DNA of 64,000 nucleotides from a virus, in the IMG/VR virus record IMGVR_UViG_3300022902_000007; one strand, given 5' to 3'. The translations under genes and the position numbers were made by a program. Below, piece by piece: positions 15,774 through 61,500 of this stretch. Numbering within the stretch: position 1 is the stretch's first letter; each line of letters opens with the position of its first letter. The notes below the pieces were generated by a model. The model saw only the letters and a list, made by a program, of their open reading frames with translations. It made no database searches and was not told where the DNA came from.

Positions 15774-15788
15774 CAACTCTCTGTCGCT

Positions 15789-16445: not shown

Positions 16446-16479
16446 GATTCCTCCTGTGGATTTGGACTGTTGGTGTCGT

Positions 16480-17550: not shown

Positions 17551-17564
17551 TTTTGCTATAATAC
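17551..17564 (+). promoter_or_regulatory. extended -10 type promoter (TGnTATAAT) heading the morphogenesis arm
   Basis: TTTTGCTATAATAC; near-copy TTTTGCTACAATAC at 43172-43185. Confidence 0.55.
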
Positions 17565-17582
17565 CCTTGCCCTTTTCCAAAA

Positions 17583-41405: not shown

Positions 41406-41415
41406 GGAGTAACGA

Positions 41416-42066
41416 ATGCCTACTTCCTCAGTGCAAATGTCCAGAACCTATACCAGCTTTTCTGGGGTTGACATCAAGGCAGTCGTAGATGGTGAGCCTA
41501 TCGGGCAACTACAGGCGATTTCCTATGCAATCCAGCGTGAAAAAGCTCCCATCTATGTGATGGGTCGAGTCGAGCCTCTGAGCTTCTCTCGTGGTAAGCG
41601 AGGTATCGCTGGGACTCTCATCTCTCTGATGCTTGATGAGCACATGCTTCTGAGCACCCCATGGAACTATCGTGGTTTTGTCGCTGACAATGATGAGGTC
41701 TATCCCTCTGTTGCAGATGCGAATGACGTCTCTATTAGTTCAAGCTCTGGTGGTCTCGCCGACCTCGAAGAGGTTGACGGCGCATCCAGCTTTGATGCTT
41801 CGAATGTCTCTGGTAGTTTTACTCTCACCAATGCCTGGTATGTTGATCAGCTCCCTCCATTCGACGTTGCAATTGTTGCAGTGAATGAGTATGGCAAGGC
41901 TGCTCAGATGCGTATCTATGGTATTGAGATTCTCAATGAGGGCTCAGGGTTCTCTATTGATGACATAGTGATTGAAAATCAAATGACTTACGTTGCAAGA
42001 TCTATATATCACTGGTCACCGATGGGAAGTTACAACATGTCTACCGGTGCCTTCACAAGCACTTAG
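41416..42066 (+). CDS. tail tube protein
   Basis: Follows the sheath gene; SFSGVDI..QAISY..RGKRGIAG..TYVAR. Confidence 0.85.
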   Translation: MPTSSVQMSRTYTSFSGVDIKAVVDGEPIGQLQAISYAIQREKAPIYVMGRVEPLSFSRGKRGIAGTLISLMLDEHMLLSTPWNYRGFVADNDEVYPSVADANDVSISSSSGGLADLEEVDGASSFDASNVSGSFTLTNAWYVDQLPPFDVAIVAVNEYGKAAQMRIYGIEILNEGSGFSIDDIVIENQMTYVARSIYHWSPMGSYNMSTGAFTST

Positions 42067-42081
42067 AACCTGCCTTTTCGC

Positions 42082-42109
42082 AAGGAGCCATTTTTGTGGC
42101 TCCTTTTTT
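42082..42109 (+). terminator. intrinsic terminator after tube gene
   Basis: AAGGAGCCA-TTTTTG-TGGCTCCTT-TTTT. Confidence 0.8.
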
Positions 42110-42192
42110 GTGTGTCCATCTTGGTATTACCTATGCATTTGTGATATATTATAGGAAGTCAACTTACTTGATTCTCTATAGAAGGATACACA

Positions 42193-43146
42193 ATGAAGAA
42201 GATACCTGTTAATGACACCTACTTCTGCAAGCACTGCCAAGAAGAGAGGCCAGCTTCTGATTTCTATTCTCGGAACAAGTCTACATGCAAGAAGTGCATT
42301 GTCGCGAAAAAGAAAGCCCGTAGAACTTCTTGTCCAGTCGATGGCTGTGATGGGACTGTAGATCACCGCTCAAAGACGGGGTTATGTAAGCATCATACAA
42401 ATCTTGCCTGGCACAATGGTGTTGATTATTCAGATCTCGAAGCTATAGCGAGGCTTCAGGTAAAGGAATACAAGTGCAGGGCTTGTGGAGTCAGGGTAAA
42501 TTGTCAGTATGAATATTGTATGAGGTGCACTCAGATCAAACATCATTATCCTGAGTACTCTGATGAAGAGATTGCCATGCATGAAACAAGAGCTGTGAGA
42601 GTTAAGAAGCGCAAAGAGAAGAAGGCTGTATATGAATCTTACTTGGAAGAGAATGAGCTCCGGCTATGTCCGAGGTGCAAGAGTGAGAAGTCGAAAGAGG
42701 AGTGGTATAGTGATCAGAGTTATTGGTGTAAGGCCTGTTATCGTGAGGGGCAGAGGAACTATTATCATAGCTACTTGAAGCATGATCCTTGTCACAACAT
42801 CCGGCATTCTTGCAAGAGAATGGTGTCCAAGGCTCTAAAAAGAGTTGGACACTCTAAAGCTGGGAAATCTTTCTTTGAGCATGTCCCCTATACAGTCCAG
42901 GAGCTTAAGACCCACCTTGAAACCCAGTTCACGCCAAAAATGTCTTGGGATAATTATGGTAGTTATTGGGTCATTGATCACATTGTCCCCCAGGCTGTCT
43001 TTAGTTATACTTCCATGGATTCTGCAATGTTCGAAGCCTGCTGGTCTCTCAAGAATTTACAGCCATTGGAACGAACTGAGAATAATAAAAAATCTTCTAT
43101 CTTTAGAGGCAAACGCTGGAATTATGATCCCAGCCGATGGGAATAA
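42193..43146 (+). CDS. HNH homing endonuclease with N-terminal zinc fingers
   Basis: Multiple CxxC pairs; IDHIVP..NLQPL..NNKKS. Confidence 0.85.
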   Translation: MKKIPVNDTYFCKHCQEERPASDFYSRNKSTCKKCIVAKKKARRTSCPVDGCDGTVDHRSKTGLCKHHTNLAWHNGVDYSDLEAIARLQVKEYKCRACGVRVNCQYEYCMRCTQIKHHYPEYSDEEIAMHETRAVRVKKRKEKKAVYESYLEENELRLCPRCKSEKSKEEWYSDQSYWCKACYREGQRNYYHSYLKHDPCHNIRHSCKRMVSKALKRVGHSKAGKSFFEHVPYTVQELKTHLETQFTPKMSWDNYGSYWVIDHIVPQAVFSYTSMDSAMFEACWSLKNLQPLERTENNKKSSIFRGKRWNYDPSRWE

Positions 43147-43213
43147 TCTTCAGCTCACTTTCCCTTCTTGCTTTTGCTACAATACGACTTGTACCATCTC
43201 TGTGAGGTAATTA

Positions 43214-44146
43214 GTGGCTTTCTCCAAGCGGTATAGATATTCATACTCTGGCGCTGACGTAAAGTGCTGGGCTTATTTTCCTCACTGGGCTGCGGGCTAC
43301 CCAATACAGGAGAATTGGCAAGTCGATCCTCAGAGTATTGGTCAACAGCCAGCTCCAGCTCCGATAGAACTGGAAGCACTGCATACCATATCTGTCTCTA
43401 TTCATGAGCCTCGTGGCCCCGCCAGAAGTCTTGGCTTCAGAAACGTGAAGGGCTTTGCTCGTTCTGTTCGGACGATAGCCGGCTCCATCATCATGACAAT
43501 CATAGAGGACCATCCTCTATTGACAATGATGCGTAAAGATCGTGAGTATGCTGAATACCACATGAAGGCCTCAGGCAGAGATAGACGAATGTGGTCTGCT
43601 GACCTCGATATGTTTGGTGTGGGCAGTATGTTCAGTGCGAATGATCTCAGTGTTCGGCTTCCCACCATGCTTGCTCCATTCAATCTGTTTTCCAGGTATG
43701 TCTCTGAGTCTGGAGTATCAGTCGCAGATGACTTGGTAACCGTGGACACGCTGGTTGGGAAAGGGTCTGGCTTCCAGCAGAATGCAGGGATCGCTCATGG
43801 AGGCTGGCTGCTGTCTGGAGTAGAGCTCGTAGGCGAAGGTGTCACGACCTCTGTGAATGACATGGTCACTGAAGTGATGTATCAATTTGTTGCTCGGGAC
43901 TACAAATCGTTCACTACTTCAGAAGCCGTAGTCAGCGGAAACATCACTAACTTCTTGTATGACCTGGACACTCCAGTGACAGTAGAAGAGAGTCTTCATG
44001 CGACCCTCATGGAAGCATTGGCGCTGCAAGAAGAACAGTCTTGGGCTCAACAGAGTGTATATGCTACTCCACCCGTAGAAGAGGGGCTGCCGTCTCGTGA
44101 ACAGAAATACATACCGACTACCTCTCGTGGTGTGGGGATGATGTAA
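43214..44146 (+). CDS. tube-fold baseplate/tube initiator protein
   Basis: YSGADVK..LHTISVS..RTIAGS..FVAR aligns by eye with the tube protein. Confidence 0.7.
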   Translation: MAFSKRYRYSYSGADVKCWAYFPHWAAGYPIQENWQVDPQSIGQQPAPAPIELEALHTISVSIHEPRGPARSLGFRNVKGFARSVRTIAGSIIMTIIEDHPLLTMMRKDREYAEYHMKASGRDRRMWSADLDMFGVGSMFSANDLSVRLPTMLAPFNLFSRYVSESGVSVADDLVTVDTLVGKGSGFQQNAGIAHGGWLLSGVELVGEGVTTSVNDMVTEVMYQFVARDYKSFTTSEAVVSGNITNFLYDLDTPVTVEESLHATLMEALALQEEQSWAQQSVYATPPVEEGLPSREQKYIPTTSRGVGMM

Positions 44147-44772
44147 TGAGTATTAAAGAATATGGATATGCCTATTTCTGCGGTGCCAATGCCGTGGTCT
44201 CCGTAAATGACTTCCCGGTTCTGGAAGCAGCGGGCATCTCTTACAACGTCATTGATTCTACTACCCCAGTATATGGGTACTCTTCCAAGCTGTTTGATGG
44301 TGTCGCTGCAGGTCAGGTTATCGTTCAGGGTTCGCTTGTCACGAATTTCGTGCATCATGACTATCTGTTCGAGTGTATAAGCTGGGGGCTATCTGGAAAT
44401 CCCACTGTTGGCCAGGCCCAGTATCTTGAAGAACAGGGATTTACTCCTTACGACCCAATTGAGTATCAGAAGCTTACGGAGGATGGCATTCCGCTTTCTC
44501 AAGATGCGATTCGGAATGCCGAAGAACAGTTTTGGACTCTGCCTACTTTGAAGAAGGATACTGGATACGAACAACTCAGAAGCATGTCCCCTCTGGCTTT
44601 CTCGCCAATAAACATTAGCATTTCGTTCGGCAAACGTTATACAATCGATTTGCTTTCGGCTTTCTTCATTGGCAGAGGAAGTACCATCCAGATAGATGAA
44701 AACACAATAATGGAAGAATATCCATTTTTCGCTCGCCAGATGAAGACCAGATATCACAATGAAACGAGGTAG
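44146..44772 (+). CDS. second tube-fold initiator protein
   Basis: YFCGAN..GISY..PVYGY..VQGS..FFAR aligns by eye with the tube protein. Confidence 0.65.
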   Translation: MSIKEYGYAYFCGANAVVSVNDFPVLEAAGISYNVIDSTTPVYGYSSKLFDGVAAGQVIVQGSLVTNFVHHDYLFECISWGLSGNPTVGQAQYLEEQGFTPYDPIEYQKLTEDGIPLSQDAIRNAEEQFWTLPTLKKDTGYEQLRSMSPLAFSPINISISFGKRYTIDLLSAFFIGRGSTIQIDENTIMEEYPFFARQMKTRYHNETR

Positions 44773-44778
44773 TTATAC

Positions 44779-45540
44779 ATGGCAGTTCGAGTAAGTAAGG
44801 TTGATGACAAAACGACAAGAATTGGTCGGGCTCTTGGAGCCAGAGAGACTCAGCTCCTTGAATCAAAGTCTCCCACAGGCGCCGACATTTGGGACAATCT
44901 CGATGATCTCAACGAAGAAGTTGAGGAATCACATGGAGCATTCTTGAAAAATAGCAAGCAGGAGAAAACAGTGAGCAGCCCAGTAGCCCGTCCTACAGGA
45001 CGCAGAGTACCCAGAGCAGTGCAAGCCCAGAGAGAGCTTGCAGAAGAGATCCCCACACCAGCAGAGCCTGAAGAAGATTTTGATACCATGCTCAATAGTG
45101 TTGGCCAAAAGGAAGAGGCTCCTGGTGGAGTCTTCATGAATGAGGATGAGAGGAAGTCCAAGATCCTGGAATACTTGAACAAGCTTCCCAATGCTCCTTC
45201 CGCTGCTCAGATTGCTGAATGGAAAAGAAAGCGTGGTCAGAACGGAGTAAGTGTCATTGTCTTTGATGATGAGAACGTCTTTGTTTATACTTACCTTGAT
45301 AATGCCCAGTGGCGAAAACTACAAGAGAAGATCCAGAAGCTGGCTGAACAGGGTGATAGAGACGCTGAAGATTTGCTCAAGGAGAAGGTCGTGAAGTTCT
45401 GTACCCTGTGGCCAGTGCTTCCAACAGAGTTCTTCTATACTTCTCGGGCCGGCATCCTGGAGAGTCTCTATAACGCCATTTGGACAGAGTCTTATTTCTT
45501 GCGTCCAGAACAAGTTCAGATGCTGACTGTACAGTTGTAG
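44779..45540 (+). CDS. tail assembly chaperone
   Basis: Position; IAEWK..G..VFVY..CTLWP..AG pattern. Confidence 0.6.
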   Translation: MAVRVSKVDDKTTRIGRALGARETQLLESKSPTGADIWDNLDDLNEEVEESHGAFLKNSKQEKTVSSPVARPTGRRVPRAVQAQRELAEEIPTPAEPEEDFDTMLNSVGQKEEAPGGVFMNEDERKSKILEYLNKLPNAPSAAQIAEWKRKRGQNGVSVIVFDDENVFVYTYLDNAQWRKLQEKIQKLAEQGDRDAEDLLKEKVVKFCTLWPVLPTEFFYTSRAGILESLYNAIWTESYFLRPEQVQMLTVQL

Positions 45541-46239
45541 ATGCTCGATATAAATGCAATCCTCGAAACTGCAGGGGGCATCTATCAGACCACTACTCCG
45601 GATGGTCACCAGACGTTCTCCTACAGACTCCTTTCCATGAAGGAGTATAGAGTTTTTGCAGCTTTGAGAGACGGCGGCATATTGCCGCCGCATGAGCTTT
45701 TCACACAAGTATTCGACAGATGTCACTTGGGCAGTTTTGTCCCCGATGCTACCAGGGCGGGAATGATCCCCTCTGTTGGCCAATGGATATTGTGGCTCTC
45801 TGGAGACTGTGAATCACAGACACTCAAACAAGACATTGACCACCTTAGAGAATTGCATCCAGCCGATTCTGTCAATGCATATCAGATGTCTATCATAACC
45901 TCTGTCTTCCCCTATAAGCTAAAAGAGATAGAGGCCTGGCCTCGTACAGAGTTCCATCGTCAGTTCGTAATTGCCGAGAATATCTTGGCGAAGCAAAACC
46001 CTGACTTCGAGCGATTCAATACTTCTCAGATTCTCTCACCCGAACAGGTCGAGAAGCTCAAGCAGAAGCAGAACCCTGCCAACATAGACTTTGCCGCCGA
46101 GAACATGTCGATTCGGAAGGGTATGGGCGCTGGTAACGTAGAGGATATGGAAACTGAAATGGGACAAAAGAGGGCACGGGTGAAAGCTTTGACTCGTGCT
46201 CAGGCAGCAAAAATGGATAGAATACGCCGAGGAGGTTAG
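45541..46239 (+). CDS. second tail assembly chaperone
   Basis: Position before the large tail gene; FSYRLLSMKEY..AG pattern. Confidence 0.55.
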   Translation: MLDINAILETAGGIYQTTTPDGHQTFSYRLLSMKEYRVFAALRDGGILPPHELFTQVFDRCHLGSFVPDATRAGMIPSVGQWILWLSGDCESQTLKQDIDHLRELHPADSVNAYQMSIITSVFPYKLKEIEAWPRTEFHRQFVIAENILAKQNPDFERFNTSQILSPEQVEKLKQKQNPANIDFAAENMSIRKGMGAGNVEDMETEMGQKRARVKALTRAQAAKMDRIRRGG

Positions 46240-46242: not shown

Positions 46243-49200
46243 ATGTCTCCAAAGCGTTGGGATTCCCAAGAGAACGTTCCGTGGAATCCTCCGAGTCATA
46301 GAGCTGGAAAGTTAGCTGTAGCCGCCGCCCTCACAGGCGGCGCTGGTTATGCTGCCATGAACTACCGGTTCTCCAGCGGTACGGCAATGGACTATGCCCA
46401 TGCCGTCATCAGACACACTGGTAACGTCTCACCCTACTCTATCCTAAATACGTTCAGAGGCGCTCAGTGGCTCTCTCCCTGGCTTTCGACAGAAGCCCAG
46501 GGGCTGTCATCGGCGAAGGACCTAAAGCTGTCTGGGAGCCTCCCAGGGGCTCCAGGAGCACGCTATCATCACTGGGCAGAGGAGATGATTGGGGACGATG
46601 CCTCCAAGGAGTGGATTCGCAAGGTAGCTGGTAGTAAGAGATTCCAGCAAGCGGGCTTGGATGTCCAGCCTTTCGAGATGCTGTATTCGAGGGGTGGAAA
46701 AGATACCACTGGTGCTGGCTCACTCTGGGCAAGAGTTCGGGGCGGTGATGCCTGGCAGAAGCTATCTGGCAGTGTTTCGCTATTCGAGGCTACTCCTGTA
46801 GATCCCAAGATAGCAGCGACCAGAGGTATTCAGCAGGAGGCGATGAATCCCGCCCTTACTGGCATCTGGGATGCCATGGGGATGAGTGAGATCTGGGGCA
46901 AGAAGAGCTACGGCAAGTTCAGTCGTGCTTTCAGGACAGTCACTGAAGAAGGCAAGCCTGGAGGGATGTCCAAGTACGTTCCTATCCCTGCATTGCTTGG
47001 CAAAGACATTGATGGGTGGCAAGGAGTCCATAGGAGATTCTCCACATATGTAGGCGGGCCTCTGGCACAGGGCATGGGCCGTATGAATCGTCTGCTCGAA
47101 CAGACGATGGACCAGTTACCGATACTCCGTAACGTGAACTATGCATTCGAGCAACAGTTCAAGACGGGTATGGGAGTTCAGCCAGGCCCTGCTTCGAAAA
47201 TGTTTGCTCGCTTCGGAACACGAGCTGCTGCCGTTGGAGCCATCGGCGTTGGTGTCGCTCAAAGCGATTGGATTCGTAGACACTATGGTGTTGGTGGGCA
47301 TCTTGCCGCGACGGGTCTTACGACTACGGCAATCACGTATGCTGCTCACAAGATGTTCAACAGAACTCCTCTGACCTTTGGAGTAGCTGCTGCTTCTGCT
47401 GTAGGCCAGTTGATTCTTCCAGGTTTCAGAGAAGGCTTGGTTCCCGGCGCGATAACGACTGCATCCAATCTTAGTATTGGCAAGTCGATGGTCGGATCTC
47501 TTACATTCATGAATACTTATAGGAGAACCCTTGAGGGGTTCTTGCCAGGTGCTTCTGATTGGAAGACTTCTGTACTGGCTGGTCTGGGTGTAGCTGGTTT
47601 CTCTTATATGGGCGGGTCCGCTGCGCTCATCAAGAAGCATGGTTATAGAGGAATACTCCCTGCCTCTCTTGAGAAATTCATCGGAGTGGAGGGTGCTGAC
47701 TTTGGCTTGCATGCAGACCCACCGCCAACTATCAGGAGTCTGTATAGAGATGAAGTTCATTCCATAGCTCAAAAGCGTCTCGGAACTGAGTACGGCTCCA
47801 TCATGAGTGAGCGTGGATGGGTAAGTTTCAAGAACCGAAAGATTGATCTGGCTCTACAAAGACAGGGCCAGTCGTCTGGCACTTGGCGTGGCCTCATGGA
47901 TGAGCTGGATCTCGCTTGGGAGACAGCATCTACCAAGTATGGTCAGTTCTTGAGCGGTGAGCTGGAGGGCTATCCTAACCTCAATAATTCTCTGCGTTCT
48001 CGCATTGCGAAGATCAATGGAGAATTCCAGGGAAGAACGGCTTCCGCGACCTCCAAGCGCTTTCTTGCGAAGAGTGGTACCAAAATCTGGCACTCATTCT
48101 TGGGAATGAACCCAGCTGTGGCCTCTCTCAGAGAAGACCTCGGTGTGCTCGGTGCGAAGAGTCATCTTGGCAGGCTTGGCTTGTTGTTTGGTGCTGGTGC
48201 TCTTGGCTGGAGCATGGTTACTGGTGGTCTGCTTGGGTCAATGGAGGACCCCTCTGAGCTTGCTGATATATATTCTGGTCGTCAACACGTTACTGTGAAA
48301 GAAGGTAGGGCCTGGGAAGCTGGCGGTGCGCCATTCGAAGGAAAGAAGCCTCTATATAGTCGTCCTCACAACTTCGCTTTGTTAATGAGCAGAGCAAGGC
48401 AGAAGGCCGTATGGGGAGATGACGAAGACGAGATTAGTCCAGTAAAGAAGTTTTTGCTAAAGAACTTCTCATATGAGCTTGAGAAGAGAACCTATTGGGA
48501 CAGGCCTCATGTTGTCTCCAGCGCTGCTTTCGAGGGCATCCCCGTAATTGGCGGGCTCCTGGCTTCTACAATTGGGCAGATCGTGAAGCCACCGAAGCTT
48601 ATGCATATCTCTGAGTGGGCTCGTCAGGGGCCCAATGGGGAGATCGAGTTTGCGCACAAGCCTGAGTATGGGAACATCTCTTACGAGATGGGAGGGTTGA
48701 CGCCTGGTGCTCCGCACTCCCCATACTCCTCTCCGTTCCAAGCTGGTTATGCTGCATACCAGTACAATGAATTGGCAGGTCTGTTTGGCTGGGCGCTGAA
48801 TACGGCTACCAAGGCTGTGACCGGCTCAGACATGTTTGCCACCCAGCGACCCGTATTGGCATCTGCTGGGGCTATCTCTTCAGCACAGAAGGCATTCTGG
48901 GACCTGGAGCTTGCTGGCGCTCTCGGATTATCAGAAGGTATAAGACGCTTTCTTCCAAGGGACCGGAGCGAAGTAGAAGAATATAATCCACTCATTAACA
49001 ACACTCCCTCATGGCTACCTGACAGATTTGCTTACGGTGATCCGTATCGCTCTGTGGACAGGGGACACGTTCGTCTGCCTGGCCCAGGCTATTCAGCTTT
49101 GCACCCTGAGCTGAAAGGCATGGATCCTGAGAACTATCCACGTATCTATCGCTACATGATTCTTGCTGATGTGGCCAATCAATCCAGAGAGTTCAAGCAG

Positions 49201-50370
49201 ACACGTCAGTCGATGTATCAAAAAAGGGCTTCTGGACAAACAACTGATTCTGAAAATCGGATGATGGACCTGGTTGATTCTCGTCTTGAGAAGATTCAGG
49301 CTTATGATACATTCCAATCCGTACATGACAATGCGATTCAAGTACCTGGGTTATCAAGGGTTAGCCAGGGGATGTGGGCTACTGCCCAGAGAGCTTTCAG
49401 AAAGACTGTCGCTCCAGTGGAGTATCTCACTCCGTTCCGTCCTGTTCAGAAACTTCTGTACGACAGAGACAAGATGGAGGCCTATGAGTGGGAAAGACTA
49501 TACGGCGGCCCCAATGCTTTCTGGGATGCACCTCAGCGTGACTTCCTCAGACCTGCAATGTATTCTGCGTTGCACAATTTAGGCTGGGATGGTAAGCCAC
49601 TATGGAGACAAGAAGTAGATAGAGACAAAGAGTATTTTGACAAGTTGGAATTCGTCAAATGGATGAGAGCTGCAGAGTCGGCCCCGACAGGCCAAGAGCG
49701 GCGGCGAGCGCTTCTCAATGCTCAGAAGACGAAGCATGGTGTGAATCCGCAAGGCAGTCCCCTTTCTATATATGCTTCTCTTCCAGAGTCGGAAAAGAGA
49801 TTCTTTGACGCTTTTACTTTCGCGCCTGAAAAAGACCGTGAGCGTATCAAGGAAATGGTTCCTGCTGATCAGGTTCATCTCTATGAAGCCATCTGGAACA
49901 GAGTTGATTCTGGAGATCGGTCTTTGCATCCGGCATCTCCGACCTCTATTGACGAGGCATATCTCAATGCTCGGTTCCATGATTTACAAGGCTACTTCCA
50001 GCAGAATCCATTGCCGCCAGAAGACTGGTCGGGTTGGAAGAGCAATGTCGAGCTTGATGATATCCAGCTTAGATATGTAGAGAGAATCGGTCGAGATATC
50101 CACGATTACGAGATGTGGGACAGACAGAGTCGGCAGCTCACGAGAAAGCCATACCTGGAAGGCTCCGAAGACTTTTTGTTCGAGGGCCACCCTCTAACTC
50201 GTGACTCCATTGCTTCTCAAATCCATGACATGGGTAGACGTCAATCTGGCCCAGCTCCACAGCTGTCTGTTCATTCAGTTCCCGGCAGCTTGTTTGATAC
50301 ACAGGCCAGGTTCTACCATGACGACAATAGAGAAGACGTGATAGGGAGGTTGTTGAATGCCCTCGAATAA
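46243..50370 (+). CDS. tape-measure-position / ejected virion protein
   Basis: 1375 aa after the chaperones; several Gly/Ala hydrophobic helices. Confidence 0.55.
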   Translation: MSPKRWDSQENVPWNPPSHRAGKLAVAAALTGGAGYAAMNYRFSSGTAMDYAHAVIRHTGNVSPYSILNTFRGAQWLSPWLSTEAQGLSSAKDLKLSGSLPGAPGARYHHWAEEMIGDDASKEWIRKVAGSKRFQQAGLDVQPFEMLYSRGGKDTTGAGSLWARVRGGDAWQKLSGSVSLFEATPVDPKIAATRGIQQEAMNPALTGIWDAMGMSEIWGKKSYGKFSRAFRTVTEEGKPGGMSKYVPIPALLGKDIDGWQGVHRRFSTYVGGPLAQGMGRMNRLLEQTMDQLPILRNVNYAFEQQFKTGMGVQPGPASKMFARFGTRAAAVGAIGVGVAQSDWIRRHYGVGGHLAATGLTTTAITYAAHKMFNRTPLTFGVAAASAVGQLILPGFREGLVPGAITTASNLSIGKSMVGSLTFMNTYRRTLEGFLPGASDWKTSVLAGLGVAGFSYMGGSAALIKKHGYRGILPASLEKFIGVEGADFGLHADPPPTIRSLYRDEVHSIAQKRLGTEYGSIMSERGWVSFKNRKIDLALQRQGQSSGTWRGLMDELDLAWETASTKYGQFLSGELEGYPNLNNSLRSRIAKINGEFQGRTASATSKRFLAKSGTKIWHSFLGMNPAVASLREDLGVLGAKSHLGRLGLLFGAGALGWSMVTGGLLGSMEDPSELADIYSGRQHVTVKEGRAWEAGGAPFEGKKPLYSRPHNFALLMSRARQKAVWGDDEDEISPVKKFLLKNFSYELEKRTYWDRPHVVSSAAFEGIPVIGGLLASTIGQIVKPPKLMHISEWARQGPNGEIEFAHKPEYGNISYEMGGLTPGAPHSPYSSPFQAGYAAYQYNELAGLFGWALNTATKAVTGSDMFATQRPVLASAGAISSAQKAFWDLELAGALGLSEGIRRFLPRDRSEVEEYNPLINNTPSWLPDRFAYGDPYRSVDRGHVRLPGPGYSALHPELKGMDPENYPRIYRYMILADVANQSREFKQTRQSMYQKRASGQTTDSENRMMDLVDSRLEKIQAYDTFQSVHDNAIQVPGLSRVSQGMWATAQRAFRKTVAPVEYLTPFRPVQKLLYDRDKMEAYEWERLYGGPNAFWDAPQRDFLRPAMYSALHNLGWDGKPLWRQEVDRDKEYFDKLEFVKWMRAAESAPTGQERRRALLNAQKTKHGVNPQGSPLSIYASLPESEKRFFDAFTFAPEKDRERIKEMVPADQVHLYEAIWNRVDSGDRSLHPASPTSIDEAYLNARFHDLQGYFQQNPLPPEDWSGWKSNVELDDIQLRYVERIGRDIHDYEMWDRQSRQLTRKPYLEGSEDFLFEGHPLTRDSIASQIHDMGRRQSGPAPQLSVHSVPGSLFDTQARFYHDDNREDVIGRLLNALE

Positions 50371-53300
50371 CTTTGCATACCCGAGAGACACTCAGTCAGA
50401 TGTCTACACAGCCGCTTCATTTTTGAAGAGGGGTGCCAGCATTGTGCCTGCTGCAGTAGGTATCGGTATTGGTGTGAGAGCAGTACTGAGCAATACTCCA
50501 GAAGCCCTCCAGGGGCTTCCTACCAATCACTTAGGAGATGCTGGAGCTCATGTCGGCGGTGCTGTCAGAAAGATGCATCAGTACAAGACGGACAGAGGAA
50601 ACAAAATAGCCGACGAGATTATCGGAAATCTTAGAGAAGGTCTGAGAGACAAGGGGAATCTGAGGCAAGCTCTGCAGTCTTCCCACGAAGAACTAAATGC
50701 GAAGATATCAGCCATCGTTGCAGCCCTGGATGAGCCCAGTATTGCTGGGGACGGCGGAGAGCTTTTACAAAGGAGGAAGGAAGAGCTTCTGTCACTCATG
50801 AGGGAAGAGGGTGATGCAATAGATCAGAAGGCAGCCCAAATGATTGAGGACACTGTCAAGGATATCTATTCAACTGCAACGGCAGATGGTAAGAGAAGAT
50901 TTGGTGAGCATCTGACAAAGTACGAACGACTCCGTAGTCAGCTCGCTCCTCCAGATTTTGTTCACAAGTCTGGTCAATCGTTCTCGACAATAAGTGATAC
51001 AGCCAGTCTCAGCAGCAGAGCCCGTGGTCAGCTCGATTCACTGTCTGGTATGCTCAGAGGCCAAGGTCGTATTGACGTAGTCAAGCACAGTTCTGGTTCG
51101 ACTTACGCTCGTGTATACGCCTCGGATGCTGCGAATGCTCGACATATCATGGACTATCCTCTTCAGTATAGGACCATGGGTGGGGTTCCAATTATTCATA
51201 CAGGTGAGGGGCTTACGACTCCTCGTGCTGCAGATCTGCTTTACACTTCTGCAAGAAATGTGCAAGAAGCCTTTGGCGGCACAGCCAGGGGGGCAACTGT
51301 CACCCGTCAAATGGTACAGGAGAACTTACTGGGTACTGGAAAAGCCTATGATTACAGAGGCTTGCTCAGAGGAGAACTGAGAAGTCGCTTAGGAGCGGCA
51401 AGGGGGAATTTGTCAGCTGTTGAGAACATGAATGAGTTCTCTCGTCAGTATCTGGCCAACATCGACAAGGCTGCTTTCGGCCGAGGAGCTTTTGCCCAAC
51501 ACCTACAAGCCCAGACCGTAAGGACTCATTCCAGAATGACAATCACTGGCTATGAGCAGGTCTCCAAGTCTACAAGGCAGTCTCAAAGGGCAATGCTGAT
51601 GGCAGCCTCTCCTGAAGCTGAGTTGGCTCCTCATGGCTTTGGAGGAGCACGACCTTTCTTCGATCCTGCCGTTGGTCATGAGTTCACTGTGGACCCTACT
51701 GGTAGAATGTCTGCGCAGGTTGGTATCAGGCAATACAAAGGCACTGGAGCAGCGATTACTCGTATCCGGAATCCCTTCCAGACTCGTGCGATGTATCCAG
51801 CCACCATGCGTATCGATCAGGCTCTGAAGAGAACTGAGTCATTCGTCCCCGGAAACAATGTTCCTTCCACTCTTGGTAGCTCTGGTACTTATAGGCATTT
51901 CGGGCAAAACATCGAATGGGCTGATGACATGGTTCGCGGAGGGCTCAACAAGGTTGCTGTGCTGACTCCGGCGAACATGGCGATAGGTCTCGGAGAAGGA
52001 GAGTTCTACACTGGCGGACGATTCGTCGTCGAGTCTCCGATCACGAAGACTGTCTTTGATCCAGGTTCCATGAAGACCCCATCATCGAAGCTCCTCAATA
52101 GACTTGTCAGCGAGGGACAGATCAGCCTTACAAGCGGAGCAGATATCAATCAGTTCTTTGGCGAGACAAAGGGGTTTCTTGGGCTTGGCGGTTCTGGAGA
52201 AACCTATCTCACAAGGAAGCAGGGCCTAATTGGATTGAATCTGACTGCTACGCCGACACAGATTGGAGACAGAAAGGTGTGGGAGATTGTTGGTAGTGGA
52301 CGCTATCTCGAAGACCCAAAGATGTTTGGGATGCATGCGAAGGCTACCTCTCGGCGTATTGGCGCAGCAGGCTTCGGCCGTGTAAGCGGAATGGTTGGTG
52401 CTGATATACTTGGAGAGACAGGTGCACTCGGACTGGGCCGAAGTGATCTCATTGTCGGCCCTGGCAAGATGTTCAAGAAGGGGGCAGGAGGGCTCATTGA
52501 TCAGATGGCCGGAGCCATGGGACTAATGAAGAAGTTCGCTGGTCCCCAAGCTGCTTATCAGGCAGCCACCCAGGGCATGTATGATCCAGCTACTCAGATG
52601 TTCAACAAGTCTACTCTCAATGCGCTGGCTTCTGGCAACACGGGTGTGGTCCTGATGAAGACTGCTGAAAACGTTGCGAGACAGATGGCTCCTATGCAGG
52701 GGCAGATATCACCGAATGTGATGGGCCGAGTATTTGGGAGTCTTCATAGCTACGGTGGTAAGCATGGTGTCAGTCAAGACGCCCTGATGGGTATGCTTGG
52801 GCAACACTTCTCTGCTGATTACATGGCCAAGCTTGGTCCTGCTGTTCAGCAAGGTATCGGCATAACTCCTACGACTCTGTTCTCTGGGCCGACTCTCGGT
52901 TCTTGGGGCTCCACCAGAGCCTCCATGGAGCCTCGCTTTCTCGGCTTGATGCACAAGACGCTAACTGACAGCTTAGGTATGGACAGAAGCTCTGCCAATG
53001 ACATCCTCGCTGGATTCATGGCAAGGAAACCAGGTGCTGCAGATGCATTGAATGCTGCGAAATCTCTCACCAGAATGCAGGCTACCATCTCTGGTGCAAG
53101 ATCGATGCTGGATGAAGACTTGCTTCAGTCCATGAGGAGGGTCGGAGCTAAAGACTTTGCAATGGCTGGCGGCTCAGATGCGGCCATGGAGAAATTCTTG
53201 AGAAGTGTTGGCAGTGATTTTGTACTGGATTTCAGTGGCAATGAGTTTGTTGAGCGAGCCGCTCGCAAAGCTTTCCACAATAATACTTCGTTATTCATTC

Positions 53301-55546
53301 CTGGATCCGAAGCACTCAATCAGATGAACAAGGCCCTCATTAAAGGCCCCTCTGGCAATGTAGAAATCAAACCAGAATTCATCAGGAGAATGGAACGGCT
53401 CAGTGGTGTAGTCAGAGACCTCATGGGTCTCCAGGCAGGAGCCTCTGCGGATCAGATCTCCAGTCATGTCAGCAATCTCACTGGCTGGGCTCATGGAATG
53501 GATCGACTATACGGACAGACTGTTCACAACCTCGGACGTGGGAAGCTTGCTGGCTCGGCTTATGTCAGAGCACAGTCTCTCGTGTTTGGTGAGAATGGCT
53601 CTGCTGACTTCAACATGGAACAGCTGAAGAGAATGCAACAGCAATACACTGGCGCCAAGGGCCATGCTGTCTTCGTTGACTCTCAAGCGTTTCTGTCCAA
53701 GATGAGAGACTCCATATCAGCAGCTGAGAAGGAACTGCTTGGTGCTGGTGAGTTCACTGGGGGAAGAGCCAGAGGCGGAGCTGTCCGTAAGGCTGGCCTT
53801 GAGTATCGTAACTTCTTCCTCGGCTCAGAGAGAGGGATGAGAATGGGCTCAATGAGTCTCATTCAGCGGCACCCGACGTTGACGAATCCTCACATTGCTC
53901 CAACTCAAGTCTATCGTGTCGCTTCCGAGACTGGAACGACTGATGACATATTCAGGAAGTTCGTGCAGACCAGTGCCGGCAAGAAGGCCCTCGCTGAAGT
54001 ACAAGGCAAGGCTGGACAGGGGATCTCTCTTGGAAGTTTCAGTGACATGGCGAAAGTCTGGCAGACGAGGAATAGAGGAGCACGAATCAAGATCAACAAG
54101 TTCTTCCAGTCCATGGCTTCACACGTTACTGATTTCATGACCGAAGAAGGCGGTGGTAAGGTATTCTTCCCGGAGTTTGACGTCAACATTCACTATGCCG
54201 GCGGGAAACTCGAAGGTGTCAACTTCTCTCCTTGGGCTGCAGCTGGCGGTGACCACGATGCAGACATGGCAGGAATGATCTCTGTATTTTCCAAGAAAGG
54301 CCGGGAGCTCACAGGCTCTCCAGCAGCAAGAGAAAAACTTGCTCGTTCTGTCCACAGACAGACCGCCGAGGGCCTGGTCATGAGGAGTCAGATTAGTGAG
54401 GGTATTGCTCGATATGCTGGGGGACTAAGCTCTACTGCAGCCCTTTCGCCATGGGAGCAAGGGCTTGAGTCTGTCTTGAAAGAACAGGCTGGTAAGGATA
54501 TCGGTAAACTTTCTACGACTCTGGGCGCTGTTCGGCAAGGGATCTGGGCTGAAGCCAAGCCAGGCCAAGAACTCATGGCAAGACAAGCAGTCGCGTTTCT
54601 TGGTGGCGCCGAGGAAGCTACACAGATTGCCTCCAAGCACTTGAGTCGTGCTCTTGATGTTGGTAGCGTCTTGAAGGCCACACTCGATCACGCAATGCAA
54701 ACTGGAGAGATTGACAAGTTTGAAAGTCTTGTCAGGAACGTGCTACTCAAAGGCAGTCCTATTCTCGGAGAAGGAATTAGTATTGAAGGTGTCACTGCTG
54801 GGAAGGCTGGCGATATCTCTGCTCGCATGGCAGCAACAGCTGAAAGGAATCTGTCTGGCCAAGCCATTGGGTTCGGCGAAGAGTCCATTGATTTGATTCG
54901 TCGTGCTGCTGTTAGAGCTCAGCAAGAGGGATACAAGGCATCTGTCACGGCGAGGGGTATCGAGTCAGTGGTCGGTAGGCATTCTCCGCAGGCTCAAGTT
55001 GCTGCTGACGCTTTGAGAAATGACTGGAGGCTCATGGCAGCAATGGGTCCGCAGGCGGGGATAGAAGCTGTTGGAGAATTCGCGAGGCAGGTAGGGAATA
55101 GGATCAGTACCTTCAGTAGAGCCATGGACAAGCGTTTCCTCGGGCCTGCTATAGTTGGTATTGGTGCTGCAGTGGGTCTTGGGGCAATGGTCGGGAGTCC
55201 AGGTTACTCTGCTGAGCCATTGATTGCCCCGGGAGAGGTGGTCACTCCGAGAGTCAAAGATGCCGTTGCAGCTGGTAGCCTATTTGATCAAAGTGTCAAG
55301 GCTCCGATGGCAGAGAACTTTGCTTCAAGTGATCGGCTCAACATTACGGATCGTCCAATTAATCCAGGTACTGCATACTTTGAAAGACGAAACGCTTATC
55401 AAATCAGAGGTGGATTGAGGAATCGTTCTGCAATTGGTGAAGTCAGTAATTTCATTAGTGGTATCGGTGGCTCTGCTTCGATTAGAATCAATGATACTCG
55501 CAGGCCATTGACTCCGAATTACATTGACCGAATCACTTCAGAGTAA
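50357..55546 (+). CDS. putative virion RNA polymerase, single chain with beta-like and beta'-like barrel motifs
   Basis: DPKMFGMHAKA and SDLIVGP (beta DK..RHGNKG and vDiilNP-like); GRGKLAGSAY, IQRHPTL and SPWAAAGGDHDADMA (beta' GKR..SGR, NRxPTL and NADFDGD-like), in the expected order. Confidence 0.7.
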   Translation: MPSNNFAYPRDTQSDVYTAASFLKRGASIVPAAVGIGIGVRAVLSNTPEALQGLPTNHLGDAGAHVGGAVRKMHQYKTDRGNKIADEIIGNLREGLRDKGNLRQALQSSHEELNAKISAIVAALDEPSIAGDGGELLQRRKEELLSLMREEGDAIDQKAAQMIEDTVKDIYSTATADGKRRFGEHLTKYERLRSQLAPPDFVHKSGQSFSTISDTASLSSRARGQLDSLSGMLRGQGRIDVVKHSSGSTYARVYASDAANARHIMDYPLQYRTMGGVPIIHTGEGLTTPRAADLLYTSARNVQEAFGGTARGATVTRQMVQENLLGTGKAYDYRGLLRGELRSRLGAARGNLSAVENMNEFSRQYLANIDKAAFGRGAFAQHLQAQTVRTHSRMTITGYEQVSKSTRQSQRAMLMAASPEAELAPHGFGGARPFFDPAVGHEFTVDPTGRMSAQVGIRQYKGTGAAITRIRNPFQTRAMYPATMRIDQALKRTESFVPGNNVPSTLGSSGTYRHFGQNIEWADDMVRGGLNKVAVLTPANMAIGLGEGEFYTGGRFVVESPITKTVFDPGSMKTPSSKLLNRLVSEGQISLTSGADINQFFGETKGFLGLGGSGETYLTRKQGLIGLNLTATPTQIGDRKVWEIVGSGRYLEDPKMFGMHAKATSRRIGAAGFGRVSGMVGADILGETGALGLGRSDLIVGPGKMFKKGAGGLIDQMAGAMGLMKKFAGPQAAYQAATQGMYDPATQMFNKSTLNALASGNTGVVLMKTAENVARQMAPMQGQISPNVMGRVFGSLHSYGGKHGVSQDALMGMLGQHFSADYMAKLGPAVQQGIGITPTTLFSGPTLGSWGSTRASMEPRFLGLMHKTLTDSLGMDRSSANDILAGFMARKPGAADALNAAKSLTRMQATISGARSMLDEDLLQSMRRVGAKDFAMAGGSDAAMEKFLRSVGSDFVLDFSGNEFVERAARKAFHNNTSLFIPGSEALNQMNKALIKGPSGNVEIKPEFIRRMERLSGVVRDLMGLQAGASADQISSHVSNLTGWAHGMDRLYGQTVHNLGRGKLAGSAYVRAQSLVFGENGSADFNMEQLKRMQQQYTGAKGHAVFVDSQAFLSKMRDSISAAEKELLGAGEFTGGRARGGAVRKAGLEYRNFFLGSERGMRMGSMSLIQRHPTLTNPHIAPTQVYRVASETGTTDDIFRKFVQTSAGKKALAEVQGKAGQGISLGSFSDMAKVWQTRNRGARIKINKFFQSMASHVTDFMTEEGGGKVFFPEFDVNIHYAGGKLEGVNFSPWAAAGGDHDADMAGMISVFSKKGRELTGSPAAREKLARSVHRQTAEGLVMRSQISEGIARYAGGLSSTAALSPWEQGLESVLKEQAGKDIGKLSTTLGAVRQGIWAEAKPGQELMARQAVAFLGGAEEATQIASKHLSRALDVGSVLKATLDHAMQTGEIDKFESLVRNVLLKGSPILGEGISIEGVTAGKAGDISARMAATAERNLSGQAIGFGEESIDLIRRAAVRAQQEGYKASVTARGIESVVGRHSPQAQVAADALRNDWRLMAAMGPQAGIEAVGEFARQVGNRISTFSRAMDKRFLGPAIVGIGAAVGLGAMVGSPGYSAEPLIAPGEVVTPRVKDAVAAGSLFDQSVKAPMAENFASSDRLNITDRPINPGTAYFERRNAYQIRGGLRNRSAIGEVSNFISGIGGSASIRINDTRRPLTPNYIDRITSE

Positions 55547-55549: not shown

Positions 55550-58500
55550 ATGACGCTTCCAATCGCCGGGGCAGTAGTTCTTCCTCGGGACATTTTTCGT
55601 GTTAACGATATAAATCTTTCCATTCCTCCCAGTCAGATCTCTGTCAGGAAGGAAGACCTCATTTGGTCATGGAAGACCCTGCGCACCAAGGCATCTACCA
55701 AGGTACCGAGTGGGCATGGAATGGTTCAGGCGTCTCTGTCAATCTATTTCACTCCAGACCTCTTGCTGGACTTGATAAGGCTGATAGTTCAGTTTAGGCA
55801 TTCTCCGTTCTGCTGGGTCGAGAATGAGTACCTGAGACAATCAATATGTCCTCACTGGCCCCTGTATCAGTCAATGGCTTTCACAATGTCGTCGATCCAT
55901 GTAGCCCCCTTTCGGGGGCATCCTGGGACTTTCATTTGTGAGATAGACCTCCGCTGGTTCAATTACTTCCCATATGCTTTCAACTATCTGTTCAGAAGAG
56001 AATGGCTCACTGAGCCTCTGAAGAATCAGAGCAACAATGTTCAGTTGTCCATTCCGACATATGGCAGAGTCGAAGGAATCGACCTTCCTGTCACTCAGAC
56101 AATCATCACGAGTCCTCAAGATCTCGCGAACGCAATAGAAGAGTATGATGTAATCTCTGGTGCAAAGAGAGATATTGTAGCAGGCTCCACAGTCCAAGAC
56201 ATGGAAGCACGGCATGGCGGCGTTGTCTTTGACAACATGCCTCTCCCGAATAGAATGGCCAAGTCAGAGGCTGTGCAAGACCCCGCTGCGTCCAACATCT
56301 ATGTCAGGTATATCAATTCTCTCATGCAAAAGAGATTGTGGGAAGGATTCGGTATTGATGCCGCCGGCGACATCATTGATGCTGTGGATGAAAGGTATTG
56401 GAGCAGATTCACTGCTGGTGAAGAACAGCCTTCGAGGACCTTCCGAATCGTCCGCCGCTTGAATGATATCTCACAGCTTCCTGCTGGAGTTGCTGATGAA
56501 TGGATAACCAAGATTCTTGCAACCACGAAGTACACTACATTCACTTGGCACCAGTATCTCTCTGTAGAGTTGCCTCCAAAACTACAGAAAGCAATGAAGG
56601 AGTTCCACACCAAGATAATTGAAGGAGAAGTGAAGAAGTTCCAATGGATGAGAGAAGAGACCCAGAAGACTCTGGATGAATGGGCCAGTAGGAAATACGG
56701 AGCATCGTATTCCTCTGGTGAGATTATTCCTGGAGCAAAGCCTGGAAACGAAGATTCTCTGAACCACTTGCCTTGGTATCCGCCCTGTAAGGCAGCTCCG
56801 GTAACATCAGTATTTACAATCACTCCTCCGTATAGGCTTCACCCAAAGCTCAACAAGTATCTTCCTCACTATGGACTTGATGTGGGTATCGCCGAAGGCA
56901 CTCCGCTGTACGCTACCAATGACGGTATTCTGTATAAGGAGGAATCCGAGGGCGGTGGACTTGGAGTCTACATCGTTCACAATCCACTTGATATGCGGAC
57001 CAGATATTTGCACATGTCTGGTTATGCTGATGAAGTGGAATCTGGAGAGACCGTGTCACGCGGGCAGTTGATTGGCTATTCGGGCAATACTGGCCGTTCC
57101 AGCGGCCCACATCTTCACTTCGAGATGAAGAAGATTTCGACTGGGCAGTTGCAAGACCCATTCATTCTGCTAACGAACCAGAGCTTCTGGAATAGCAATA
57201 CTGATTATCCTGAGGATGTCGAGGCTTCTGACTTCGGTACGGACATAGATACTGATCTGGATATAGATTCTGACGTAGACACCGATGCCCTCGGAAATGA
57301 TGTTCGAGATCCTGATGGCGACAGTCCCAATGTACCGAGTAACTCAGCAGACATAGAGAAAGGTCTTGGAGACGGCGGGGCTATCGGTCTGACAGATGAA
57401 GAGAAGCAGCTCGTAGCTGATACTTACGCTGAACTCATTGATGAGGGCTGGGTCTATTACGAGAAAGATCAGTCGGTAACCAATGTCTGGCAGCGAGCTG
57501 TATCAATAATGGTTGATACGGACTGGCTGCTTGAAAACAAGGAAGCTACTGGAGAGTTACTGTTCAAGGAAGGGGCTATTATTTCTTCCATGGCTGGTTC
57601 TCTGCAGCATGTCATTGCGAGCATCCCAATTCTCGGCCATGAGTTCCCGACTCATCAGCATCTGGGATCAATTGAGCCTAACTACATGATTGAGTTTGCT
57701 CTCCTGGATGACGGAGAGAAGAATACTGGGATCGGTACGATTGGTAAGATGTTAGAGACCATGAGAGCTTCTCTCCAGGAGAACGCTCGCACATTCAGAA
57801 TCATACCTGACTGCTGGACTCTTGCTACAGACCATTTCATCACTCGTCTCTTCGGTAGTTATTCGGAGACAGACATTCTGTTGGATGACGAAAATGGGCA
57901 AACAGAAATCAAGAAACGCTCAGCTATCTCTGCGTCTCAGACAGAGACGAAGCAGGGTAACCCCGGCTTGTCTGCGATGGTTTTTGAATTCTCGGAGACC
58001 AATCCTTACGAGACTGAGTTCATAGTAGCTGAGCCCAGCCTTGTAGACGATATAGAAGACAGAAGAAAAGAAGTACTCCATGCCTTGTATGACATGTCAC
58101 TATCGGATCCGGGCAAGACTGCAGCTATCCTCGCAATGGGGGAGATGCTCAGTGTAGACGAAATCGATTCATTCAGGCAGAATGATGAGTGGAAAGCAGC
58201 TAATGGAAGAGTGGGTGGAAAAGATCAGTCAGTAGTCACTTTCGACAATTTCTCTGTGGCCGCTGACCCGATGCTGCTGACAGCCGGAGCTGTAGGTCTG
58301 CCTCCATCGTCAACTGACCAGGTAGATCCTGTGCAAGCACTTATCGCCCAAGCTGCTGGGATCGGCACAATCGGTTATCAGGAACACCTGGACCTGATAG
58401 ACATAGATACTGCTTTGAGGAATTCTCCTGAGCTTGATCCTCTGTATGCAGAGGGAGCTGGTTTCGTTTCCGAGACACGGAACGGTGACTTCTATTTCAA

Positions 58501-61500
58501 AGCAGGAGAATATCCATCTACTACAGCTTATGATGCCACTGAGTTCTATAGACTCTATCCAGAGCTGGAAGGTGTGGATCTCGACGAATTGGCTGGGCTT
58601 TACAGTATCCTTCGGTCGCTCCTCAGAGCTACTCGCAGAATGCTGGTTGATGAGGGTGTCCCGAATGCTCATGGCGCTGATGAAGTCTGGAAGAGACTCT
58701 ATGAGATGCCAGACAAAGCTGCGGTCAAGCCTCAGATGTATTCCCAGTTCGTTTACTACCTCGCTCAATTGCTTGGAGGAGATACTGGAATTGAACGTCT
58801 TCATCTTGCAGGTATTGGAGACCGATATATCGATCTCGATGCGATCTCACAAGAAGACAAAGAAGAGCTCAGAGAAAGAGAGCTATTGAACTCAATGAAG
58901 AGTGGTATCTGGCAGCTCTGCTTTGACGCTCCAACTCAGTTGTTCTTGCACACTCTGGCTGCTTATTCATTCTTCAATGATGCTGGTATTCAGGTGCTGT
59001 CTGGTACTGATATTGGAGACATCCAGTGGGGGCAGCTGAACAAGAATCTCAAGCTCTCCTATCAGAGTGAGAAGGCCCAGGATGCTGTTGACGAGTATGT
59101 ATGGCTGCTTCCAATAGACGCCTCAGTTCCTGAACAACTTGCCAATTCGTTCCCCTTGTTGGGAGATGTGGTTTCTCGTGGCGGCGATCTAAGTCAGTCC
59201 TTCGGACTGCATGCGTCTTTCGACAAGTTCCTTCTCTCAAGCTGGCTGATCCATGCAAGGACTTCGGCATTCTGGCCAGAGATAATGAAAGCCAACAGAG
59301 GGAACATCCAGGCATACCAGACGTTGGTTGGAGCTGCAGAACGAGCCTTCCCAGATGACCCAAAAGTTCAAGCTGCTATCGAGCAGGCTGGCAAAGAGGC
59401 CAGCAGTGTGAAATGGACTGCTGATGCCCCTGGGGAAAGCAAAACACAAGAGATCTCAGAAGCCTACAAGGCTGCCGCCGAAGCTGTCATCGAAGCACTC
59501 CCTCAGTCTCACATCAGGTTCCCCTGCAGCACTTCCATAGAGTCCAACAAAATATCTTGGTTGAAGAAGCTGTACCAGACTCTTGCCGACAGAATCTTGG
59601 AAAGTCCTCGACTTCTCGCATTGTTCGGGCTTGAAGATCTCCTGAACTTTGATGCTGGTAGTCAACATCGTGGATCTGAATGCTACCCCGATCTTGACCT
59701 GCCCAAGCATCCTTACTATCCAGAAAACTTCAATGCCACCTCTCCTGATTTCTACATGTGGAACATGTACGAAGATGGCCCTGGTGCTCTAACACAGGAG
59801 ATGTTGCAGGTTGTAAGTGAGCAAGCTACTCAAGCAATTCAGGGCCCTTACGAGCATTTGAAAAGCATGATGGGGAACGGCATCAAGCCGTTTGCAGAGA
59901 GAGATGAATGGCTGACTGTATATGGTGATGACGGCTCTTCTGAACTTACGCCAAGACTTTCAGCATTACGGGCTTCATGGGAGGGATCTGATGAGAACCT
60001 CGTCAAGATGGGGTCTGAATACATCAGTATGCGAGAGATGCAGGCAGCTTTCCCAGACCCTGAAGCTCTGGAAGAATGGAGATCGAGGGGCGACGACGGG
60101 CTGAGGGAGCTTGGGAACAAGGTCAAGTCTTTGAAGGGCACTGCCCAGAGTGTAGAGGCTGTTGATACAGCTATCGGAATGCCTGGAATCAACGACCCAA
60201 AAAGTGATGAATACACGCAGGCCTATTCATTGGAGAACCTGTACAAGACCCTGGTTGATTTGCAACAGGATATCAGGCCTCTCTCTCCTCTCCTCTCTGC
60301 TTTTGATGGTAATCCGCAGTACACTCAGATTCCAAGAGCTGACCTCGACACTTACAAGGACCTCGTAAAGAAGGTCCAAGAGACAAAGACATTCTTTGGT
60401 TCACGAGCTGGTTATCTCGGCGACCGCATCACCAAGGACACAGCCAAGCTGATCACGGATTCTACTACAGACACTCGTGTAGCAGCGTTAGATGCTTACA
60501 CCCATGCTTTCGACCCAGCTTCTCTTTTGAGGCTTGCTCAGGATTCAGCTGCTGACATTCTCTCAGAGAAGATGACTCTACGTAGAGCATATCCTACTTT
60601 CAAGCTGATGTTTGTTGAAGAGGACGAGTTCGAAAGTCGCTGGCTGAACTTTGATGACTTCCACTCTTACAACTCTGTTAAGGAATTTACCATTGTAAGA
60701 AGTCGTGACATGGCTGCCTCTACGGCTCATATCACTCTTCAGAATGTATCTGGAACTCTGGATGGCACCAAGCGAAACGTAATCACTGATTTGGACTATT
60801 TCCAAGAAGCAGAGATAGAGCAGATTGAAGGTGACGCCAAGTATACGATGATGGATGCTCGATCAGAGTCTGCACCAAGAATTGATTCATCTCAAGACCA
60901 GCCGTTTGGAGCCCTGGTCCTTAGGCCAGGGCTGAATGTCCAACTCCGAGTAGGATTCAGCAATGATCCTGGGATGCTCGAAGTGATGCTCTCTGGCCGA
61001 GTCACAGATGTAACCTGGTCTACTAATGGAGACATGGCCGAGATAGTGGTTCAGTCTTTCGGGACCGAGCTCGTACAGGCCCTCAAGGGCAGAGATGAGT
61101 TCTATGACCAAAACGGCGAGCCTAACGCCGAACAGGAGATTTACGAGACTACCCATAAACTGCTGGGGTCAATGATGCTGAGTCCTGAACTCAGACATTT
61201 CGGTAGATGGGAATGGGGCCAGCTTTATCAGTACGGCGAATCCAAAGATTCGCGTCTTGATTTCTATGACTATGCGAGGGATTCTTTCCTGAACAAGTTC
61301 AAGGTGATGACTGGCGTTTCCAGATGGATTGCTCGTCACCCTGTGCTTACATGTGTGTCTGCTATTGGCTTGGCAGCGTTGGCGACCTTTACTCCGATCA
61401 GGGGTGGGGCCGGCTTCCTATCAAAAGGGTTAGCTGGATTCGGAAGGGTCGGCAGGTGGATCGGCCTTGGAAGAGCTGCTGCAACTGTTTCTGATGACGC

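Follow-up and report, generated by a model that had tools for sequence, protein, structure and literature searches.

The open reading frame at 50357-55546 (+) lies among the tail genes of an uncultured phage with a contractile tail and encodes a 1,729-aa product (P0001) that we interpret, at a probability of roughly three in four, as a single-chain DNA-dependent two-barrel RNA polymerase (RNAP) that is packaged in the particle, ejected at infection, and starts a two-polymerase cascade. The proposed cascade parallels that of the virion RNAP gp96 and the non-virion RNAP gp64 of Thermus phage P23-45 (PMC10770324). The window (the whole stretch of 64,000 nt analysed, from IMG/VR record IMGVR_UViG_3300022902_000007) belongs to a myovirus whose relatives include Bacillus phage 0305phi8-36 and Acinetobacter phage ME3. 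The structural genes run from terminase, portal and capsid through sheath, tube paralogs and two genes of the chaperone slots to a gp145-like gene, the RNAP gene, and a hub-like gene. The parts of the reading differ in strength: on the predicted structure it is almost certain that P0001 has a polymerase fold, in which a beta'-like half comes after a beta-like one; family sequences indicate that it is very probably an active enzyme; and delivery by the virion is likely.

An earlier note, made from the letters of the DNA and a list of its reading frames, had described the product as a fused beta/beta'-like RNAP, and the reading frame, the motif coordinates (D653 at 52313; IQRHP from 53861, with R1171 at 53867; D1299-D1303 at 54251-54265) and the Gly/Ala/Arg-rich composition that it reported are borne out by the sequence: P0001 contains no cysteine, with 12.1% Gly, 11.7% Ala and 7.2% Arg. 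No match to P0001 was found in Pfam (E <= 0.1), PHROG or the PDB sequences, or by tblastn in 50,697 phage records, and no tape-measure (TMP) profile of Pfam or PHROG matched; its look-alikes in the ESM Atlas, including TMP-like ones, all score under 0.9. Since 12.8% of shuffled versions of P0001 contain a DxDxD, this motif alone is weak proof, and the case depends on homologs.

A full HMMER search yielded homologs that form 71 representatives at 50% clustering, and residue conservation was counted in the 57 homologs of at least 1,000 aa (~20-44% identity to P0001). Seven residues are invariant in all 57 (D1299, D1301, D1303, P1173, E1376, E1420 and K1427), while the neighbours of the catalytic residues vary freely; invariance amid variable neighbours is the pattern of selection on catalysis. 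The earlier note had staked its proposal on the conservation of K655, K662, R1171 and D1299/D1301/D1303 and on their convergence in a two-barrel active site; these residues are kept in 55, 56, 56 and 57/57/57 of the 57 homologs, and a two-barrel polymerase is predicted. The two lysines (52319-52342, +) had been likened to those of beta; the pair is indeed conserved, but its spacing is 7 in 56/56 homologs having both, against 8 in beta/Rpb2, and D653, named along with them, is not conserved in homologs and was dropped as a functional residue. The Mg-binding loop D1299-x-D1301-x-D1303 (54251-54265, +) takes 16 spellings among the 57 homologs, most often DFDGD (20) or DFDAD (9), so the DHDAD of P0001, earlier singled out as a special variant, is unremarkable.

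Eight residues have been listed as invariant in two-barrel polymerases (PMC2919709), and seven of them are present in the P0001 family. The eighth is the position of Rpb2 D837, whose counterpart, placed by its position between two predicted strands, is probably E547 in the pair E547-G548 (51995-52000, +; compare the 'DG' of QDE-1): the Gly is kept in 56/57 homologs, and the residue before it is acidic in 29/56 and Glu in P0001. Superfamily features found in P0001 include DxDxD in a double-psi beta-barrel (DPBB), RxP (R1171-x-P1173, 53867-53875, +, the counterpart of Rpb1 R446/P448), and the two lysines of the second barrel (Rpb2 K979 and K987). About 500 aa separate K662 from R1171, the distance from RxP to DxDxD is 107-1,388 aa in every member of the family, and 281-320 aa follow the trigger-loop lysine K1427 in 55/56 homologs. 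Some homologs carry inserts of 300-1,400 residues inside the catalytic barrel, which account for the length of the longest members. Among the long homologs are P0044, P0046, P0047 and P0066 (2,481-3,057 aa). Across the family, inserts between RxP and DxDxD are Cys-free and reach ~1,390 aa, and no Pfam domain was found in the large barrel inserts of the three long homologs scanned.

Residues 281-1480 of P0001 (numbered 1-1200 in the model) were modelled with AlphaFold2 from a 56-sequence alignment, giving a pLDDT of 90.4 and a pTM of 0.89; the single sequence gave a pLDDT of 40. The core is predicted to fold compactly as an alpha/beta enzyme rather than a repeat helix, and in it the two barrels meet in one active site and are followed by a bridge helix and a trigger loop. 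The beta/Rpb2-like half (aa 281-855; 51197-52921, +), which includes the basic-residue barrel DPBB-B with K655 and K662, matches beta/Rpb2 chains over model residues 1-575 (Z 8-10.8), and the beta'/Rpb1-like half (aa 914-1480; 53096-54796, +), comprising the catalytic barrel, bridge helix and trigger loop, matches Rpb1/beta' over model residues 634-1200 (Z 7.5-8.5). The catalytic barrel, DPBB-A (aa ~1065-1310; 53549-54286, +), has a helical insert between RxP and DxDxD and matches isolated DPBB domains over model residues 785-1030 (Z 5.8-6.6, rmsd 2.5-3.0). The segments that we call bridge-helix-like (K1375, E1376, G1383) and trigger-loop-like (E1420, K1427), at 54479-54637 (+), take these putative names from their order and helices.

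When the model was compared with the PDB by Foldseek, no match reached E <= 0.001, and all 50 matches listed were RNA polymerase subunits (best E 1.1e-3). A second structure search, independent of Foldseek, covered 48,161 PDB representative chains, of which the best 17 are all two-barrel polymerases, in accord with the fused beta/beta'-like enzyme first proposed. QDE-1 aligns in one rigid superposition over model residues 2-1200 (Z 10.4, rmsd 4.9, 447 residues) and RDR2 over the whole chain (Z 10.2, ~450 residues), and the beta-like half aligns with DNA-dependent beta/Rpb2 over ~370 residues. Scores are lower for the gp64 homolog 8f5m (Z 7.8) and for P23-45 gp96 (8h2m; Z 5.9, rmsd 5.1, 374 residues); gp66 of phage phi14:2 is not among the best 50 structure matches listed and gave no sequence match either. 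These structure scores are moderate, yet they are consistent with one another and with the order of the motifs. Structural relatives in BFVD include A0A8S5SD80 (a 'minor tail protein' of Siphoviridae), A0A6J5NLU4, and giant proteins of the Microcystis phages Ma-LMM01 and MaMV-DC, which on the strength of the model are possible hidden polymerases.

Upstream of the RNAP gene, at 39096-46239 (+), PHROG matches identify the tail sheath, the tube and tube paralogs, an HNH-like gene and two chaperone-slot genes in the same order as 0305phi8-36 gp139-144; the HNH-like endonuclease gene (42193-43146, +) sits between the tube gene and a tube paralog and is absent in L002. The gp145-like gene (46243-50370, +) directly follows the chaperone genes, overlaps the start of the RNAP gene by 14 nt, and encodes a Cys-free protein of 1,375 aa that is an alternative tape-measure candidate. 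Downstream lies a gene in the gp147 slot for a baseplate-hub-like protein of 2,811 aa with an M23 peptidase (55550-63985, +), assigned from Pfam and PHROG matches and gene order. The neighbours of the RNAP gene are kept in 6/6 homolog loci; the gp145-like gene is conserved in all these phages, whereas the protein of the RNAP slot varies. In the closest relative the gp145-like gene (L013 4618-10014) is ~420 aa longer, with a weak LAGLIDADG match and 9 Cys, and the insertion is probably an intein.

The slot proteins of cultured relatives are of several kinds. In 0305phi8-36 the slot is held by gp146, which is Cys-free, is recorded in a GenBank note as present in the virion by mass spectrometry, and has been called the tape measure, chiefly on tail length (PMC2147016); it lacks DxDxD, and no similarity between it and the P0001 family could be detected, so that the packaging of P0001 is argued from position. 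ME3 gp36 (ME3_36), annotated as hypothetical, is likewise Cys-free, shares with gp146 and P0001 the order of the operon, and carries DG, K-x6-K, RxP and DxDxD; it is a Foldseek match of the P0001 model (E 8.2e-5, recognised from its 1,603-aa length), and comparison with the P0001 family HMM and profile was not significant (E 6.5; probability 0.9%), the sole aligned stretch being the two-lysine motif. The slot proteins WH1 gp095 and KLEB27-3 gp034 (L008 18359-25906 and L009 18100-25404), annotated as structural proteins, have RYP, DxDGD and a trigger-like motif in common at 27% identity and, going by these motifs, are probable unrecognised virion polymerases. The slot seems to hold an overlooked polymerase in the cultured phages ME3, WH1 and KLEB27-3. 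The slot protein of MTATph1 contains an exonuclease-like domain (phrog_192, E 5e-11) and lacks DxDxD, and ~180 aa of it are common to 0305phi8-36 gp146 (loci L005 23285-27214 and L003 23966-31579).

Several features of P0001 are consistent with ejection. The 72 proteins of the family contain no cysteine in 109,111 residues, and the chance of zero Cys in P0001 alone, given the other structural genes, is ~6e-6; in N4-like phages, the ejection proteins are characterised by cysteine suppression (PMC11445570). The gp145-like neighbour is Cys-free as well, the exception being one homolog that carries a LAGLIDADG insertion. Hydrophobic helices near both termini, as the earlier note had reported, are found at residues 26-44 (a Gly/Ala helix, 50432-50488, +, with a similar helix in 25/53 homologs) and 1594-1612 (55136-55192, +, in 43/53 homologs, ~104-123 aa before the end). 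The homolog alignment also reveals a conserved C-terminal tail (aa ~1665-1729; 55349-55546, +), whose final 29 residues are the most conserved stretch of the family, and which is possibly a hub- or tube-docking end. Of the two further suggestions in that note, injection finds indirect support in the tail operon, the Cys-free family and the mass-spectrometry record for the 0305phi8-36 slot, and a membrane tether is suggested by the C-terminal helix and the weaker N-terminal one. A common end motif shared by P0001 and other Cys-free proteins was not found above noise. Near the terminase gene, three further proteins are Cys-free, basic and Gly/Ala-rich (19254-22271, 22274-23224 and 25565-26008, +), the largest (19254-22271) carrying a staphylococcal-nuclease domain (E 8e-17); we regard these as candidate ejected proteins, one of them a nuclease.

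The window carries another two-barrel polymerase, at 10411-13674 (-), a YonO/RdRP-like protein of 1,087 aa with 32 Cys that is assigned from a PF05183 match above the cut-off (E 5.4e-12), its motifs and a homolog in the complete relative G001, and that is a candidate non-virion RNAP. Its gene lies in a GC-rich block outside the virion genes, and the G001 homolog occupies the same place. No tblastn match to it was found among cultured phages, and no similarity was found between it and P0001; for the two polymerases of P23-45 an origin by duplication has been proposed. The same block contains, at 10360-17205 (-), five elements composed of a hairpin, a pyrimidine tract and A(R)YGG (near 17174, 15744, 15156, 13744 and 10368), which are candidate terminator/start sites. 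About ten hairpin/T-tract elements occur in G001 upstream of the second polymerase (L017 9780-14300, -), where one strand has 7 copies of CTTTTAYGG (0.2 expected), and the layout, often with a second small stem-loop trailing the element, is conserved between the two phages. By their sequence, the elements look like a terminator that gives way immediately to a new start bearing a 5' stem-loop; we infer that they serve the virion enzyme as promoters, and they are possibly plain terminators or RNA-processing sites.

Around a fold and an active-site selection that were computed, the inferred steps of packaging, ejection, tethering and promoter use would run as follows. P0001 would be synthesised late, as the tail proteins are, and packed into the tail or head; it would cross the envelope unfolded or partly unfolded, along with the Cys-free gp145-like neighbour, and its hydrophobic end helices would keep it at the entry site. 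There it would refold and transcribe the GC-rich minus-strand block (17.3 to 10.4 kb), starting at the hairpin/T-tract elements, and transcription of this early block would yield the second, non-virion polymerase for later genes. For the full two-polymerase cascade with hairpin/T-tract promoters we put the odds at about even.

The closest precedent is P23-45 gp96, a tape-measure-fused virion RNAP of 5,002 aa from a siphovirus with gp64 as its non-virion RNAP (PMC10770324; PDB 8h2m, 8h2n). Like P0001, it combines both barrels of an RNAP in one chain, its gene sits in the tail operon's tape-measure region, and the genome has a second RNAP. In gp96, however, ~3,800 aa of tape and peptidase follow the polymerase, whereas the polymerase makes up ~1,200 of the 1,729 aa of P0001 and only ~300 aa come after the trigger-loop lysine, which leaves no long tape segment of the gp96 kind; the phages differ too, P23-45 being a siphovirus and the P0001 phage having a contractile tail. 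No sequence homology between P0001 and gp96 was detected by phmmer, profile or tblastn. The virion RNAP gp66 of phi14:2, a crAss-like phage, is likewise a large single-chain two-barrel enzyme, with a fold related to QDE-1 (bioRxiv 10.1101/2020.03.07.982082), but it is an ejection protein of podovirus type, whereas P0001 sits in a contractile-tail operon. YonO-like and QDE-1/RdRP enzymes (PF05183; PMC2919709) also have both barrels in one chain; P0001 differs in having no PF05183 match, ~500 aa between K662 and R1171, and sequence features of virion type. The virion RNAPs of N4-like phages (Schitoviridae) resemble P0001 in being Cys-free and ejected and in their hydrophobic helices (PMC11445570), but their T7-like right-hand fold is unrelated to the two-barrel fold. 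A 'moraphage' paper was set aside, as it concerns a lineage other than that of the P0001 phage.

The most serious alternative, though an unlikely one, is that the polymerase chain doubles as the tail ruler, lying extended in the tube, setting tail length, and folding into an enzyme only after ejection; it is compatible with the preferred interpretation and differs only in the structural role. The assignment of the 0305phi8-36 slot as tape measure, made mainly from tail length (PMC2147016), agrees with such a ruler, as do the hydrophobic helices at both ends, the strong conservation of the C-terminus adjoining the hub gene, and the size of a folded 1,200-residue core, which is too big for a tube lumen of ~4 nm; against it, the gene that directly follows the chaperones and is conserved throughout, unlike the variable slot protein, is the gp145-like one, the predicted P0001 is a compact enzyme and no repeat helix, and some homologs have their long inserts inside the catalytic barrel. 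More doubtful still is a broader extension to 0305phi8-36/ME3-type myoviruses in general, whereby a virion polymerase would be stored extended in the tube as ruler and would fold only once ejected. The cargo of the slot would then be interchangeable, a polymerase in the P0001 family, ME3, WH1 and KLEB27-3 and an exonuclease-like domain in MTATph1, and the hairpin/T-tract elements would represent a promoter type not seen before.

Virion delivery could also serve a different chemistry, and we consider it improbable that P0001 is an ejected two-barrel enzyme that mainly draws DNA into the cell, makes primers or copies RNA rather than synthesising mRNA. Its best whole-chain matches, QDE-1 and RDR2, can use RNA templates, the acidic second-metal residue is variable in the family, and the exonuclease-like domain of the MTATph1 slot implies that the cargo of the slot can be swapped; the ~370-residue match of the beta-like half to DNA-dependent beta/Rpb2 argues instead for a DNA template, and two characterised virion two-barrel enzymes, phi14:2 gp66 and P23-45 gp96, transcribe phage DNA. 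Slightly less probable again is a late, cytoplasmic, non-virion polymerase, for late genes for example, whose place in the tail operon would reflect timing only: the complete lack of Cys in P0001 against 32 in the other polymerase and the conserved hydrophobic end helices speak against this, and the separate polymerase at 10411-13674 would already fill the non-virion role. The lack of a sequence-profile match to any polymerase, together with the frequency of DxDxD by chance, might suggest that P0001 is a tape or pilot protein of structural function whose polymerase fold is dead or whose motifs arose by chance, but catalytic residues that stay invariant among freely varying neighbours make this very improbable. 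This alternative is largely refuted by homolog conservation, the model and the structure matches, and chance motifs were rejected.

The idea of a virion RNAP in the tape-measure region has already been published for P23-45 gp96 (PMC10770324), and one-chain virion-delivered two-barrel polymerases have so far come from crAss-like podoviruses and one group of Thermus siphoviruses. To these P0001 adds, in contractile-tailed phages, a family that comprises at least 71 clusters (50% identity) and that profile libraries have missed; the survey in the gp96 paper used a filter of 20-100 for the spacing from RxP to DxDxD (PMC10770324), and the 107-1,388 aa of the P0001 family fall outside it. A literature search that left subscription journals mostly outside its scope found no paper on a polymerase in this myovirus slot, and the accessible part of the supplements to the gp96 paper (PMC10770324) does not list ME3 or 0305phi8-36. 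Because ME3, WH1 and KLEB27-3 are cultured, two questions can be taken to the bench: by what route a 190-kDa enzyme gets through a contractile tail, and which of the proteins serves this lineage as tape measure.

A 2021 survey of jumbo phages reported RNAPs only in phiKZ-like phages and in two YonO-like cases (PMC7824862), whereas ME3 appears to encode two. Besides gp36, the ME3 region 222114-226849 (-; L029 3115-7850) contains ME3_309, a Foldseek match of the P0001 model (E 8.9e-8, matched by length) that stops just past an RNP motif, and ME3_307, which opens with DxDGD. The interval that separates the two genes contains a match to a group I intron (RF00028, E 1.5e-11) as well as a T5orf172-type gene. 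ME3_309/ME3_307 is probably an unannotated second RNA polymerase that is split by the intron between RxP and DxDxD. Elsewhere in the window, ~700 nt at 16480-17170 have no credible open reading frame and possibly represent a non-coding RNA, and a purine-skewed stretch at 17340-17850, where strand direction and AT skew flip, is a possible genome end or origin. Three proteins encoded at 1016-1747, 4792-5352 and ~5869-6186 (-) are made of a 23-aa repeat (69-nt period).
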